Source: a virus
Virus record (IMG/VR): IMGVR_UViG_3300018495_000106
Direction: 5' to 3' (one strand)
DNA length: 64,000 nt
The position numbers and the translations under genes are program-made. The notes beneath the pieces are model-generated. The model searched no databases, was not told the origin of the DNA, and saw only the letters and a list, made by a program, of their open reading frames with translations. This document shows positions 44,047 through 56,574 of the stretch, piece after piece (the stretch's first letter is position 1; every line of letters begins with the position of its first letter).

Positions 44047-44291
44047 TGAGTGTTTGCGGCGGTTGCCCATATCCATATGAAGCCGACATTGCTGGTGAAG
44101 AGCGTAGCAAAAACACCGATGATTATTGCGGCTATGGCTGTTCTTTTGAGGACGCAGCTTATCGCGCTCAGTGGGCATATGATAGACTAATGGAGCGCTA
44201 TGAAGAGCTTGAGAAAGAGCATGAACTTCTCAAAGCTGAAGCGGATATCATGCGACATAAACTAAAGTACATGGAGGATGACGGGAAATGA
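44046..44291 (+). CDS. hypothetical protein
   Basis: coupled. Confidence 0.5.
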   Translation: MSVCGGCPYPYEADIAGEERSKNTDDYCGYGCSFEDAAYRAQWAYDRLMERYEELEKEHELLKAEADIMRHKLKYMEDDGK

Positions 44292-44698
44292 TTGATAAGT
44301 TCGATGGCGAATTTGCATTTTTAAGTAACTTCTACCCTTGTACTGTTCGTGATGGGAAGCTTACCTTCCCGTCTACTGAGCACTACTTCCAAGCGATGAA
44401 GACTCTCGATATGGTGGAGCGCATTAACATCTCACGTGCGGCTACTCCTGGTGAGTCTAAGAAAATGGGTCGTAGCGTTAAGTTGCGCCCAGATTGGGAA
44501 GAAGTGAAACTATCAGTTATGGAAACTGCGCTCCGTCAAAAGTTCGCAGACCCTGAACTGGCGGCGAAGTTAAAGGCGACCGGAAATGAAGAGCTCGTTG
44601 AAGGTAACTGGTGGAACGACACCTATTGGGGCGTATGTAGGGGTGTCGGCGAGAACAACCTCGGCAAACTCCTCATGAAGATTAGGTCCGAACTCTAA
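44288..44698 (+). CDS. NADAR (YbiA-like, DUF1768) domain protein
   Basis: FLSNFYP, EHYFQAMK and W..G.N.LG..LM motifs. Confidence 0.6.
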   Translation: MIDKFDGEFAFLSNFYPCTVRDGKLTFPSTEHYFQAMKTLDMVERINISRAATPGESKKMGRSVKLRPDWEEVKLSVMETALRQKFADPELAAKLKATGNEELVEGNWWNDTYWGVCRGVGENNLGKLLMKIRSEL

Positions 44699-45234
44699 TG
44701 AAAAGTATCCTGGCCTCCATCCTTATTGGGTTTGGAGTTGCGGTTTTATTATTCCTTGGCAATCCGCTTGGCCCCGTGCTTTTTGCTTTTGGACTAATGG
44801 GCGTTTGTTACCTACAGGCTGACTTGTATACCGGCAGAGCTGGCTATTATTGGAAAGATAGAAAGGCTGAATTAGCCAAGATTTTGGTAATCAACCTTGT
44901 TGCTGGCTATGTGTTTGGTTTACTACTTAGCTATTGCTCACCACAGTTAATCCCAGTAGCGCTGGAAAAAGTTGCGAGTTGGGATTTTTCAGTAGCATTT
45001 TTTATTCGTTCCGTATTCTGCGGAATGATTATGTACATATGTGTTGATTTGTTTAAGAGAGGGACTTATGTTGGAATATTGTATGGAGTCCCTCTATTTA
45101 TCTTCTGTGGTTTTCAACATTGCATTGCAAATGTTATTGTTCTCGGCGTAGCACACGCTTGGTCTTGGACTTTAATTTTAGCAATTTTAGGAAATTTAGT
45201 AGGAAGTATGATAATCAACACACTTTCTAAATAA
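44698..45234 (+). CDS. membrane protein
   Basis: multiple TM segments. Confidence 0.55.
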   Translation: MKSILASILIGFGVAVLLFLGNPLGPVLFAFGLMGVCYLQADLYTGRAGYYWKDRKAELAKILVINLVAGYVFGLLLSYCSPQLIPVALEKVASWDFSVAFFIRSVFCGMIMYICVDLFKRGTYVGILYGVPLFIFCGFQHCIANVIVLGVAHAWSWTLILAILGNLVGSMIINTLSK

Positions 45235-45244
45235 AAAATCTTAA

Positions 45245-45273
45245 TTGATTTTATTAAAAATATATGATATAAT
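45245..45273 (+). promoter_or_regulatory. consensus promoter
   Basis: upstream of Sir2. Confidence 0.8.
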
Positions 45274-45309
45274 ATATATGTAAAGAAGTGAAAGAGAGGT
45301 ATATCAGAA

Positions 45310-53787: not shown

Positions 53788-53805
53788 GAAAAGGAGATTT
53801 AAGAT

Positions 53806-55278
53806 ATGAATTTTCGTAAGATGATTATGCTGTACAGTGACTCTTATAAGCAGTGCCACCCTCTGATGTATCCCGATAACCAGGAGTATCTGGTATCTTA
53901 TCTGACTGCTCGAAAGGCAATGAATGACAACTTCCCTAAGATGGTTGTTTATGGTATTCAGCCTTTCATTATGGATATGCAGAAGGGCTTTGAAGAGTTC
54001 TTCTATGAAACCATCGAACAGGTTATGTATGAATATGACCATTACATCGATGCCCACCTTGGTCTTGGCAATGTGGCGCGAGACCGTATCGTCGAACTGC
54101 ATGAACTGGGCTACCTGCCCGTAGAAATCCGCGCAATTCCCGAGGGTTCTGTAATCAATATGGGAATTCCTCTGGTTGAGATGCGCAATACCCATCCTCG
54201 TTTCGCCTGGGTTATTCAGTGGCTTGAGTGCCTGCTTCAGACTGAAGTGTGGCCTATGTGCGCATATGCGACCGTAGGTTGGGAGTACCACAAGGTTGCT
54301 GAGAAGTTCTATTCTCATACCGCACCTGGCGCCGACCCTTATATGGCAATGGCTGACTTCGGTTTCCGTGGCATGAGCTGCCTGGAAGATGCAACTCGTT
54401 GCTCTGCTTCTTGGCTCCTGTCTTTCAATAAGACTTCTACCATTCCTGCTCTGCCTTATCTGGACGAGTACTACTATGCTAACTGTGCAGAGCACAAGAT
54501 TGGCATTGGCGCCGTTTCCACTGAGCACTCTGTTATGGCTGCTAACTACGCAATCGATGGTGATGAAATTACTTTCGTAAAGCGTATGCTGACTGAAATC
54601 TATCCTAATACCAGTTTCTCTATGGTATCTGATACCTATGACTACTGGAATATGGTAAACAATATCATTCCTGCTTGCAAGGACGAAATTCTCGCCCACA
54701 ATGGCAAACTGCTCATTCGTCCTGACTCCGGCGACATGGTTGCTATCTCCGTTGGCACTATCCAGAAGCTGTGGGATGTTTTTGGCGGCACTATCAATGC
54801 TGCTGGTTACAAGGTCCTCGACCCTCATATTGGTCTGATTTACGGCGATGGCTGCACTCTGAACCGCGTTGAGCAGATTTATGAATCCCTCGAAAAACTG
54901 GGCTTTGCTTCCACTAATGTGGTCTTCGGCGTTGGCGCTTTCTGTTTCCACGCTCTGTTCAGCCCGGACAACAAGTTCACTGTTCTGACTCGTGATACTT
55001 GGGGCATGGCTATGAAGGCTACTTATGGTGTCTTCGGTGGTAAGGAAGTTCCTATCTACAAGGACCCTAAGACCGACGTTGGCGGACTGAAGAAGTCTCA
55101 GAAGGGTTGCTGCATGGTTCAGAAGCATCCCGATGGCACTTTCGAGTGCATTGATGGTTTCTCTGAGTGGGTTGACGACAATCTCACTGTTATGAAGACT
55201 ATCTACAAGGATGGTCAGTACTACAATCTGCAGACTTTCCAGCAGATTCGTGCAAATCTTTATCCGGAGGTACACTAA
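53806..55278 (+). CDS. nadV: nicotinamide phosphoribosyltransferase (NAMPT/NadV family)
   Basis: DSYKQCH, EIRAIPEGSV, DFGFRGMS, VSDTYDYWN, IRPDSGD, IYGDGC. Confidence 0.85.
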   Translation: MNFRKMIMLYSDSYKQCHPLMYPDNQEYLVSYLTARKAMNDNFPKMVVYGIQPFIMDMQKGFEEFFYETIEQVMYEYDHYIDAHLGLGNVARDRIVELHELGYLPVEIRAIPEGSVINMGIPLVEMRNTHPRFAWVIQWLECLLQTEVWPMCAYATVGWEYHKVAEKFYSHTAPGADPYMAMADFGFRGMSCLEDATRCSASWLLSFNKTSTIPALPYLDEYYYANCAEHKIGIGAVSTEHSVMAANYAIDGDEITFVKRMLTEIYPNTSFSMVSDTYDYWNMVNNIIPACKDEILAHNGKLLIRPDSGDMVAISVGTIQKLWDVFGGTINAAGYKVLDPHIGLIYGDGCTLNRVEQIYESLEKLGFASTNVVFGVGAFCFHALFSPDNKFTVLTRDTWGMAMKATYGVFGGKEVPIYKDPKTDVGGLKKSQKGCCMVQKHPDGTFECIDGFSEWVDDNLTVMKTIYKDGQYYNLQTFQQIRANLYPEVH

Positions 55279-55781
55279 TGATAGTTCATATGCCTGGTGA
55301 CTTACTCAAAGTACAGAAAGACATGAATCTTGATGTGATTTGCCATCAGGTGAATTGTCAGGGTAAAATGGCGTCTGGTATCGCGAAGCAGATTCGCGAT
55401 ACCTACCCGCAAGTTTATGATGCATATCGAGCAAAATATGATGCAATGGTAACATTGGGCGTTAATATGATGCTTGGTGATGTTCAGCTCGTTCCTCTGT
55501 ATGAGGACTTTATGAAAGACATTAAACATCAACATGTCTGCAATATGTTTGCACAGAATAACTATGGTTATGATGGCAAGCGTTACACTTCCTATGATGC
55601 GTTTTGGATTTGTTTGAATAATCTCAAGCAGGTTCTTCCTAAGGGGTCTACAATCGGTTTCCCTTATCTGATTGGCTGTGACCGCGGTGGCGCAAACTGG
55701 AATGTAATCGAAGCAATGATTCGAGAAGTTTTTGATGAAGACTATATAGTCTATATCGTTCATTATAACGGAGGAAAGTAA
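55278..55781 (+). CDS. macro-domain protein (ADP-ribose binding/processing)
   Basis: ICHQVNCQGKMASGIAKQI resembles the macro-domain Gly-rich motif. Confidence 0.5.
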   Translation: MIVHMPGDLLKVQKDMNLDVICHQVNCQGKMASGIAKQIRDTYPQVYDAYRAKYDAMVTLGVNMMLGDVQLVPLYEDFMKDIKHQHVCNMFAQNNYGYDGKRYTSYDAFWICLNNLKQVLPKGSTIGFPYLIGCDRGGANWNVIEAMIREVFDEDYIVYIVHYNGGK

Positions 55782-55782
55782 A

Positions 55783-56574
55783 ATGGGTAAGGATAAGAGA
55801 AAGTGGGAATTTGACCCCAAATATCAGATTGAATACACTGTTGAGTGGATTCGTAAATATTTCGTGAAGAATGCCGGTCCCGAGACCAAAGCTATCATCG
55901 GTATTTCCGGCGGTAAGGATTCTACAATTGCGGCCGCCCTGCTTGTCCGAGCACTGGGCGCAGACAGGGTTCACGGCGTATTGATGCCTTGTGGCACTCA
56001 GGCAGACATCGCGCATTCCTATGAAGTCTGCGAGGCTCTTGGTATCAAGTATGATGAAATCAATATCGAGCCTGCAGTTGATGCATTTTATGGTTGCGTG
56101 GGTCGTGGTGATTGCGAAATTCCTGCTGTTCGCACTAATGTTCCTGCTCGTATGCGTATGGTAACTCTATATGCTATCGCAGCAATTTATGGAGGTCGTG
56201 TAGTCAATACTGGTAACTGGTCCGAGGGTTGGATTGGTTACACCACCAAGTATGGCGATCTCGCCGGCGACTTCCATCTGTTCCAGGAGCTGACTGTTCG
56301 TGAAGTTCTCATGATGGGTCGTGCGATGAAGGAAATCCCTCGTCACCTGGTTGATAAGGCGCCTGCGGATGGTATGACTGGTCAGACTGATGAAGACAAT
56401 ATGGGCGTAACTTATGACCAGATTGATGATTATCTGCTTCTGGACATTATCCCCGATGTCGATACTTGGCGTAATATGAGCCAGCGTCATGCAAGAAATG
56501 AACACAAGAAATGCATTAACTTGCCTGGCCCTCGCGCCGAAGGTCGTAACGACAATTATCATTGGCATTTCTAA
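55783..56574 (+). CDS. nadE: NH3-dependent NAD+ synthetase
   Basis: GISGGKDS PP-loop. Confidence 0.8.
   Translation: MGKDKRKWEFDPKYQIEYTVEWIRKYFVKNAGPETKAIIGISGGKDSTIAAALLVRALGADRVHGVLMPCGTQADIAHSYEVCEALGIKYDEINIEPAVDAFYGCVGRGDCEIPAVRTNVPARMRMVTLYAIAAIYGGRVVNTGNWSEGWIGYTTKYGDLAGDFHLFQELTVREVLMMGRAMKEIPRHLVDKAPADGMTGQTDEDNMGVTYDQIDDYLLLDIIPDVDTWRNMSQRHARNEHKKCINLPGPRAEGRNDNYHWHF

Follow-up and report, generated by a model that had tools for sequence, protein, structure and literature searches.

Why would a phage that carries a pair of genes for rebuilding nicotinamide adenine dinucleotide (NAD+) from ADP-ribose (ADPR) also carry, in the same gene cluster, a nicotinamidase and an NAD synthetase? 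The question is raised by a 64,000-nucleotide stretch of viral DNA (IMG/VR record IMGVR_UViG_3300018495_000106; the window hereafter), in which a first-pass annotation made from the sequence alone had singled out seven open reading frames (ORFs) with NAD-related signatures between positions 44288 and 56574. All seven were found there on the plus strand, and they carry the signatures of NADAR, Sir2, a nicotinamidase (PncA), a Prs-like protein, a NAMPT-like protein, a Poa1p-type macro domain and an NAD synthetase (NadE). Pfam searches, which that annotation had proposed, placed the named domains above curated thresholds in six of the seven ORFs; the macro ORF had no Pfam hit at E ≤ 0.01, and its domain was recognized by comparing a family profile with solved macro domains. 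We put a probability of about 0.6 on the reading that the core of the region, 50903–56574, is a NARP1 (NAD+ reconstitution pathway 1) or NARP1-AP type of phage operon that follows a deamidated branch and would rebuild NAD+ after host NADase defenses have acted. The first-pass annotation was thus partly supported: it identified the families correctly, probably named the wrong substrate, and understated the role of PncA and NadE.

The Prs-like gene at 51658–52431 and the NAMPT-like gene at 53806–55278 had been matched to the NARP1 pair, and this match holds, since both encode homologues of the experimentally validated NARP1 enzymes and not housekeeping Prs and NAMPT. The first gene encodes a 257-aa protein with a Prs-like fold that is indeed shortened relative to Prs, lacking the C-terminal Prs helices. 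It is 38.8% identical (E 4e-39) to the Adps of phage SPbetaL1, whose gene lies immediately upstream of Namat, compared with E 9e-14 for the best solved Prs. Its identity to the validated Adps proteins is about 30–38%, and these share 22–53% among themselves. The protein matches Pribosyl_synth only weakly in Pfam (E 6.5e-8) and phrog_619 strongly (E 2.6e-64), has no Pfam Pribosyltran_N match, and falls below every NCBIfam Prs cut-off (TIGR01251, 100.7 vs 113; equivalog models, 38–75 bits vs 296–536). Aligned with the Adps proteins of SPbetaL1, ICP1, a Felix-O1-like phage, Kayvirus and Vibrio phage RYC, it keeps the ICP1 Adps residues, namely an aromatic residue at 18, R87, H121, D161, the catalytic K185, D212, D213 and F221; these key residues, as well as the loss of the C-terminal Prs helices, are known from the ICP1 structures (PMC13586617).

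The second gene encodes a 490-aa type II phosphoribosyltransferase with the Pfam domains NAPRTase and NAMPT_N. Its best solved relatives are 9W5X and 9W5W (340 bits, E 1.7e-100, vs 180 bits for human NAMPT), which according to their depositors are SPbetaL1 Namat bound to nicotinamide and to NAD+. In a neighbor-joining tree rooted on phage NAMPTs, the window protein falls inside the Adps-linked Namat clade, and it keeps the Namat core residues D13, Y15, F189, R192, the catalytic His, R306, D308, G360, D361, G390, R399 and D400. The two genes lie on the same strand 1.4 kb apart, and in 79 of 80 related loci they are adjacent.

The pyridine pocket of this Namat-like enzyme is altered. In the SPbetaL1 Namat structure, Asp215 makes a hydrogen bond to nicotinamide (PMC12774641). 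This residue, D219 in human NAMPT, is absent from the window protein, where Ser211 (54436–54438) takes its place, and Ser is found there in 81 of 81 members of the window clade. The window protein also carries Lys209 (54430–54432) for Gly213 and Ser238 (54517–54519) for Ala242, both in SPbetaL1 numbering, and a further change at A183. Throughout the joint alignment, canonical Namat and NAMPT proteins read G-[ST]-D-[ST] at SPbetaL1 positions 213–216, a motif recorded for them without exception, and have Ala242, whereas the window clade reads K-T-S-T with Ser242 (81/81) and a second clade, consisting of relatives of the gut phage Phass-1 together with MT835544, reads R/N-T-A-T with Ser242 (13/13). 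All of the best 120 protein clusters from a collection of 5.8 billion proteins likewise contain K-T-S-T. A Glu occupies position 215 in five canonical-type Namat proteins (loci L164, L166, L170, L173 and L177), none of which has PncA or NadE nearby. The first-pass annotation had the pyrophosphorylated ADPR condensed with nicotinamide; because the Namat-like enzyme is without the nicotinamide-binding Asp, this chemistry is probably wrong here.

An unbiased column scan gave a similar picture, with 10 of 491 alignment columns separating the two groups (97, 141, 172, 185, 187, 213, 215, 239, 242 and 304). Columns 215 and 242 are two of the seven nicotinamide-pocket residues of the Namat crystal structure, and columns 187 and 213 match H191 and G217 of human NAMPT, two residues of the tunnel wall beside the nicotinamide site. 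In human NAMPT, tunnel inhibitors fail to bind when H191, G217 or A244 (equivalent to 242) is mutated (PMC4919578 table 2). Both groups keep the residues that touch the ribose, the phosphates and the AMP phosphate (R306, D308, G360, D361, G390, T398, R399 and D400), each being invariant or conserved to at least 93%, and in the altered-pocket enzymes most adenine contacts are unchanged as well. Since the contacts to the ADP-ribosyl donor are kept while those to nicotinamide are changed, the functional shift would concern the pyridine substituent and not the donor. Asp219 of human NAMPT is described as the residue that defines substrate specificity and D219S as a mutation that switches substrate affinity (PMC7096376, PMC4919578), and the D215A mutant of SPbetaL1 Namat makes 8.1-fold less NAD+ from nicotinamide (PMC12774641). 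The Lys or Arg gained two residues upstream in both lineages would be expected of a pocket that binds a carboxylate. A profile–profile comparison of the Namat family with a true NAPRTase, the PncB of Sinorhizobium phage Phosso, reached a probability of 0.2 and gave no usable alignment for the residue equivalent to Asp215.

The altered pocket goes together with a particular gene content. In a first sample of 80 IMG/VR loci whose Namat is 56–91% identical to that of the window, tblastn with the island proteins of the window found Adps in 79, PncA in 78, NadE in 74, the macro protein in 69, NADAR in 35 and Sir2 in 6. With the addition of 11 Phass-1 relatives, 80 diverse canonical Namat loci and reference phages (SPbetaL1, ICP1, Kayvirus, Felix-O1-like, a Gordonia phage, Vibrio RYC and two NAMPT-only T4-like phages), 182 Namat/NAMPT loci were compared. 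PncA is present in 92 and NadE in 88 of the 94 loci with Ser or Ala at position 215, and neither is present in any of the 88 loci with Asp or Glu (0/88 for each). In all eight incomplete Ser/Ala loci, including all six in which NadE was missed, the contig breaks off on the side where the missing gene would lie. Fisher tests, uncorrected for relatedness, give p ~1e-50 for PncA and ~1e-45 for NadE. On a single strand, the genes stand in the order PncA>Adps>Namat>phosphatase>(NADAR)>NadE and cover a median of 4.3 kb, the phosphatase slot being filled by either a macro or a HAD phosphatase. A further 19 loci in bacterial genome assemblies have K-T-S-T with the same partners, except for one without a motif-search match. 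By comparison, among 50,697 deposited phage records, 1548 have an Adps-like gene, whereas only 13 of all the records contain a PncA homologue and 47 a NadE homologue.

The clustering noticed at first is therefore real, with five core genes in one order and on one strand in ~90 independent metagenomic phage loci, far beyond chance. What has to be revised is the suggestion that PncA and NadE extend the pathway into a broader salvage island: they are not loose salvage additions, because they are obligate in the operon and are found only with the altered Namat-like enzyme. Sir2 and NADAR, which had been counted as island members on the same footing, are only loosely linked. The Namat proteins of the window clade (K-T-S) and of the Phass-1 clade (R-T-A) are 32.7% identical to each other and 38–39% identical to SPbetaL1 Namat, and the nicotinate-route module may have originated, or been retained, in two deep lineages.

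A scheme that uses all five core enzymes can be proposed as follows. First, where needed, the macro protein, of the Adpp type, would convert ADPR-1''-phosphate to ADPR. Second, Adps would transfer pyrophosphate from ATP to ADPR, giving ADPR pyrophosphate (ADPR-PP) and AMP. Third, PncA would hydrolyze the nicotinamide released from NAD+ to nicotinate and NH3. Fourth, the Namat-like enzyme would join nicotinate directly to ADPR-PP, yielding nicotinic acid adenine dinucleotide (NaAD) and pyrophosphate. At last, NadE would convert NaAD to NAD+ with ATP and NH3, and the NH3 freed by PncA could serve as the co-substrate of this NH3-dependent enzyme. The ORFs of at least 88 aa that were scanned across the 64 kb contain no adenylyltransferase for nicotinamide mononucleotide (NMN) or nicotinic acid mononucleotide (NaMN) and no PncB; therefore, the only phage-encoded link from the product of PncA to the substrate of NadE would be the reaction of nicotinate with ADPR-PP to give NaAD. 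We consider it somewhat better than an even chance that the protein at 53806 and its ~100 relatives are nicotinate:ADPR-PP transferases that make NaAD in one step, forming a distinct deamidated pathway that is widespread in large phages and prophages of human and animal gut Clostridia. The one-step formation of NaAD from ADPR-PP would be an enzyme activity without an earlier description, and a literature search, which was not exhaustive, returned nothing that links Namat or NARP1 with nicotinate, NaAD, PncA or NadE.

Alternatively, the locus could be a canonical NARP1-AP operon with helpers, in which the Namat-like enzyme still joins nicotinamide to ADPR-PP while PncA and NadE boost, in parallel, the Preiss-Handler salvage of the host through its PncB and NadD. 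Clostridial hosts generally have PncB, NadD and NadE, and the catalytic core and the ribose and phosphate contacts of the enzyme are intact, all of which is compatible with such an arrangement; assorted classical NAD-synthesis genes have also been reported in gut jumbo phages (PMC11662467). We nevertheless regard it as unlikely. PncA and NadE are missing from all 88 canonical loci and present in every complete altered-pocket locus, the substitutions that separate the groups fall on nicotinamide contacts, and the D215A mutation costs SPbetaL1 Namat activity on nicotinamide (PMC12774641). Moreover, a co-transcribed nicotinamidase would compete with a nicotinamide-dependent Namat for its substrate and destroy it. 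PncA and Nampt are mutually exclusive in bacteria (PMC9316036).

Several points weigh against the nicotinate route. The use of nicotinate is read from sequence and gene context, and the replacement of Asp by Ser or Ala may do no more than broaden specificity, as is listed for human D219S. The co-occurrence signal amounts to two or three deep lineages and not to 94 independent events. The longer route costs more ATP; its advantage might lie in hosts or defenses that deplete nicotinamide or in abundant gut nicotinate, which is speculation. The core in the window is also split into two transcription units and holds three inserted ORFs. Furthermore, the adenine clamp is remodeled in the window clade: the SCL Arg40 is replaced by Met (Met39 in the window), and the SCH motif GSX-phi-X-phi-X-phi-TRD is broken by an insertion of 9–10 residues, the clamp helix of the window reading GAFCFH, then the 10-aa insert ALFSPDNKFT, then VLTRD. 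Because the published clamp signature is broken, the use of ADPR-PP is less certain in the window clade than in canonical Namat. The nearest solved relative of the window NadE, 3FIU, adds a further point, since we take it to be the Francisella enzyme. A homologue of that enzyme was found to be an NMN synthetase with marginal activity on NaAD and not a NaAD amidase (PMC3376133). An archaeal single-domain NadE of a similar score class is NaAD-specific.

The last of these points bear equally on a reading without any recycling of ADPR, in which the protein at 51658 is a short synthetase of phosphoribosyl pyrophosphate (PRPP), the protein at 53806 makes NaMN or NMN, NadE amidates NaAD or NaMN, and the adenylyltransferase comes from the host. 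The remodeled clamp (R40M and the SCH insertion) would fit such plain PRPP salvage, as would the PRPP activity that SPbetaL1 Namat keeps in vitro (PMC12774641) and the possibility that the best solved NadE relative is an NMN synthetase. This reading is improbable for the following reasons. The protein at 51658 clusters with the validated Adps proteins and scores below every Prs family cut-off, and a macro protein of the ADPR-1''-phosphatase type is translationally coupled to the gene at 53806, which is sensible only if ADPR is a substrate. [quoted passage not shown] No adenylyltransferase was found in the 64 kb.

The macro protein (55278–55781, 167 aa) is a Poa1p/TARG1-type domain whose start overlaps the Namat stop codon. 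It matches phrog_335, annotated as phosphatase, at 4.5e-36, and its family profile retrieved from PDB sequences BT1257 (1e-29), the yeast ADP-ribose 1''-phosphate phosphatase Poa1p (6LFU, 3e-19) and OARD1/TARG1 (1.6e-15). With the phosphatase encoded inside the operon of Vibrio phage RYC it shares 35.8% identity. Adpp, the phosphatase of the published NARP1-AP, converts the ADPR-1''-phosphate produced by RES-domain NADases to ADPR (Osterman et al.; bioRxiv 10.64898/2026.01.28.702374), and the ADP-ribose processing first proposed for the macro gene agrees with this type of enzyme. In the same slot, a small HAD-like protein (DFDDTVF...LDDRAGL) was observed in 18 of 88 canonical loci, 6 of 13 Phass-1 clade loci and 11 of 81 window-clade loci, for example at L084:7784-8203 (minus strand) and in ~35 other loci (such as L066, L093 and L143); this may be a second, unrelated ADPR-phosphate phosphatase.

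A further alternative concerns the purpose of the operon and not its chemistry, and it can coexist with the nicotinate route: NAD+ would be supplied to the NAD consumers of the phage itself (the sirtuin, ligases, ADP-ribose chemistry) during a long jumbo-phage infection, whether or not the host mounts a defense. A sirtuin and genes for nucleotide and RNA repair do lie nearby, and 'NAD-jumbo phages' with both NAD synthesis and NAD-consuming enzymes have been described (PMC11662467). As the explanation of the locus, such metabolic augmentation is nonetheless very improbable, since large amounts of ADPR arise mainly through the cleavage of NAD+, NARP1 reportedly builds NAD+ only after NADase activation (bioRxiv 10.64898/2026.01.28.702374), and Sir2 is linked in only 6 of the 80 loci.

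Other candidates were rejected. NARP2 was set aside, as the scanned ORFs contain neither an NMN adenylyltransferase of the NadM, NadR or NatV type nor a cytidylyltransferase-type match, and so was NARP3, as neither PnuC nor a NadR-like enzyme was found in the window. A full Preiss-Handler set was likewise set aside: PncA and NadE are there, PncB and NadD are absent from the window. The idea that PncA clears inhibitory nicotinamide for the phage sirtuin was discarded because Sir2 is found in 6 and PncA in 78 of the 80 loci. Finally, a standalone AAA_28 P-loop protein (42526–43053, E 1.8e-8), which is the sole signal in the direction of NARP3, was considered as a nicotinamide riboside kinase and had no NCBIfam or PDB match.

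The remaining core genes and their arrangement are as follows. PncA (50903–51475, 190 aa; Isochorismatase in Pfam, E 4.9e-24) has the nicotinamidases 1ILW of P. horikoshii (4.9e-15) and 3PL1 as its best solved relatives. Aligned to 1ILW, it shows the Asp/Lys/Cys triad as D8, K98 and the Cys of GVCTDICV, and its D-x-H...H metal site, DTH...PHC, aligns to D52/H54/H71; the score against the NCBIfam equivalog model of the E. coli nicotinamidase is low. NadE (55783–56574, 263 aa; NAD_synthase E 9e-51; TIGR00552 166.7 bits vs a cut-off of 63.65) is a single-domain, NH3-dependent enzyme type with the PP-loop GISGGKDST and without a glutaminase domain. A 62-aa ORF (51468–51656) that overlaps the PncA stop and abuts the Adps start is kept only in L002 and L003 and had no family match in Pfam or PHROG searches. 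Between Adps and Namat lie a 171-aa ORF (52449–52964) with a lipoprotein-type signal peptide, MKKFLALILALCMCFSLVAC, and two ORFs of 62 aa and 178 aa, the latter Cys-rich (53082–53787). The first has no homologue among the 80 related loci and is probably an insertion, the other two occur only in the nearest relatives L001 and L185, and all three are read as insertions because they are missing from all but the closest relatives.

The core is transcribed, as far as signals in the DNA indicate, as two units on the plus strand. Unit 1 opens after a hairpin terminator (50816–50841) with a promoter-like site (50840–50868, TTGATT-17-TGtTATAAT) and contains PncA, the 62-aa ORF, Adps and, at its end, the lipoprotein-like ORF. 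A second hairpin terminator (52973–53004) and promoter motif (53002–53030) mark the boundary to unit 2, which contains the two inserted ORFs, the Namat-like gene, macro and NadE and ends at a hairpin terminator (56576–56612); the next promoter motif follows at 56610–56638. Starts and stops overlap or abut at PncA/62-aa ORF, 62-aa ORF/Adps, Namat/macro and macro/NadE. The 29-nt promoter-like motif, TTGATTTTT(n)AAAAAATATGtTATAAT with the extended -10 element TGnTATAAT, occurs at 28 sites in the window, all on the plus strand, against 0.04 expected. The sites span 527–60838 (for example 45245–45273, 47948–47976 and 57401–57429, besides those above), and the motif, often directly 3' of a hairpin terminator, appears to define the transcription units of the phage. 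A full-length sigma-70 is encoded by the phage at 38480–39505.

The first-pass annotation had treated 44288–56574 as one cluster, of which the core stands; the 12.3 kb do not form a contiguous module, as NADAR and Sir2 lie 5–6 kb upstream behind unrelated genes. The 136-aa NADAR protein (44288–44698, plus strand; PF08719 E 1e-25; TIGR02464 78 bits vs a cut-off of 73.7) probably removes ADP-ribose from nucleic-acid bases, and in relatives its gene usually sits inside the operon, between macro and NadE. The 256-aa CobB-type sirtuin (45310–46080, plus strand; PF02146 E 2e-52; NF001752, NAD-dependent deacylase, 276.7 bits vs 221) has the GAGVSTESGIPDFRS motif, the catalytic His and the Zn cysteines (Zn-Cys4 site), and would be a NAD consumer loosely tied to the core. 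Both are accessory neighbors and not obligate parts. Between them and the core lie a formate/nitrite transporter (FNT)-like fragment, YqeY, Thg1, two ORFs without a family and the gene of an 830-aa major-vault-protein homologue. The FNT-like fragment (44698–45234), between NADAR and Sir2, is a 178-aa membrane protein that covers most of the formate/nitrite transporter profile (E 6.5e-12), is ~90 residues shorter than usual, and is missing in all 80 related loci.

The vault gene (48313–50805) encodes a protein homologous to the major vault protein of eukaryotes (MVP_shoulder 1e-26, Vault_3), predicted to be made up of a beta-rich N-terminus, a shoulder and one helix that is ~135 residues long. 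Its homologues number 6733; the 120 listed are 69–96% identical and lie on long metagenomic contigs. In relatives, its gene adjoins PncA. An AlphaFold2 model of the 830-aa protein reached a pLDDT of 44 with a shallow alignment of close homologues. Viral major vault proteins from human gut phages were reported earlier (bioRxiv 10.1101/2023.11.10.566534). Genes resembling RNA and tRNA repair functions surround the NAD genes (40157–42498, 46040–47471, 16151–16504 and 56688–58830). They include an RNase T-like exonuclease, an RNA ligase, YqeY, a Thg1-like 3'-5' polymerase, a cREC_REC cyclic-phosphate domain, an AAA_33 kinase and three calcineurin-like phosphoesterases, and several of them are syntenic with the NAD operon in relatives. 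A 510-aa SPFH/flotillin protein encoded downstream of the island (59145–60677) is kept in relatives, and upstream (35703–36077) lies the gene of a protein with a YspA-type SLOG domain, whose family is predicted to recognize ligands derived from nucleotides.

The window as a whole is a tightly packed, all-plus-strand piece of a large phage genome. It contains 37 tRNA genes at 15833–31170, covering nearly all amino acids and interspersed with small ORFs that include a PD-(D/E)XK endonuclease (27242–27697), and a YcaO protein followed by two weak radical-SAM-like proteins (8708–14358), which could be a peptide-modification cluster like those of ribosomally synthesized and post-translationally modified peptides. 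A megablast search of the 12.3 kb region against the 50,697 phage records gave no match at the DNA level, and its nearest relatives, which reach 402 kb in length (L003), are contigs of uncultivated viruses. The matches in genome assemblies are almost all Clostridia (Lachnospiraceae, Roseburia, Agathobacter, Ruminococcus, Acutalibacteraceae and Faecalimonas), and the host of the window phage is probably a member of the gut Clostridia. Two isolate genomes carry the five-gene module on large scaffolds, Lachnospiraceae bacterium A4 (KE159538.1) and Ruminococcus sp. AM36-2AA. The genes flanking the module in A4 encode a phage-type methyltransferase, helicase and primase, and such flanks suggest a prophage or carried phage; together, the two isolates suggest prophages or carried phages with a cultivable host.

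NAD+ depletion is among the commonest bacterial anti-phage strategies, and NARP1 is the commonest known phage answer to it. If the nicotinate route is true, it would add a new reaction to NAD biochemistry, the making of NaAD directly from ADPR-PP, and would show that nature has switched the pyridine specificity of the NAMPT/Namat fold at the very residue identified by mutagenesis of human NAMPT. It would also explain the nicotinamidase and NAD synthetase genes of gut phages, and raises the question of whether some hosts or defense systems make nicotinamide unavailable. As a rule for annotation, K/R-T-S/A-T vs G-[ST]-D-[ST], together with neighboring PncA and NadE, would separate the two pathway types.

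Among the published systems (NARP1, NARP1-AP, NARP2 and NARP3), the NARP1 of SPbetaL1, ICP1 and E. coli phage Bas63 (bioRxiv 10.1101/2024.02.11.579819; PMC12774641; PMC13586617) shares with the window the homologous Adps (38.8% identical to that of SPbetaL1) and Namat (38%) in one locus, the catalytic residues and the predicted first step from ADPR to ADPR-PP. The window differs by the Asp215Ser, Gly213Lys and Ala242Ser changes and the 10-aa clamp-helix insert of its Namat, by its obligate PncA and NadE, and by a predicted transferase product that is NaAD instead of NAD+. NARP1-AP of Vibrio phage Gary (Adps, Adpp and Namat; bioRxiv 10.64898/2026.01.28.702374) has, as the window does, a Poa1p-type macro gene in the operon; such a gene is present in 69 of 81 window-clade loci vs about 12–15% of canonical NARP1 loci. 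The macro gene lies 3' of Namat in the window, whereas in Gary and RYC it separates Adps from Namat. The window has PncA and NadE in addition, and a HAD-like phosphatase replaces the macro protein in some relatives. The human NAMPT mutant D219S (Khan et al. 2006, as cited in PMC4919578 and PMC7096376) shares the change from Asp to Ser at the carboxamide-reading residue. It is an engineered mutant of a PRPP-using enzyme, whereas the change in the window is natural, clade-wide and accompanied by a new basic residue two positions upstream.

The classical Preiss-Handler pathway (PncA, PncB, NadD and NadE) shares with the window the deamidation of nicotinamide and the final re-amidation by NadE; in the window, which is without PncB and NadD, Adps and the Namat-like enzyme would replace these two, with ADPR as a ready-made ADP-ribosyl donor. 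Sinorhizobium phage Phosso (469 kb) offers a comparison, as it clusters a PncA-like hydrolase, an NMN adenylyltransferase, a Nudix protein, PncB and NadE at 268–275 kb without Adps; that a phage with PncA and NadE but no Adps carries PncB and an adenylyltransferase is what the classical route would lead one to expect. The 'NAD-jumbo phages' of animal and human guts (PMC11662467) resemble the window in being large gut phages with clustered NAMPT, pncA, nadE and NAD consumers, but there the genes are read as classical salvage or Preiss-Handler genes, and nadE, pncA and NAMPT are not tied to Adps, ADPR-PP or a nicotinate-specific Namat. Phass-1 (OQ749652.1, a code-15 Caudoviricetes phage from the human gut) has the same five-gene layout of nicotinamidase, Prs-like, NAMPT-like, small phosphatase and NadE. 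Its Namat carries Ala for Asp215, G213R and A242S and keeps the canonical adenine-clamp motif, and its phosphatase is HAD-like and not a macro protein; in its record the genes are annotated singly, and no described pathway was found. In this company, the locus is best placed as a new, and probably deamidated, form of NARP1-AP.

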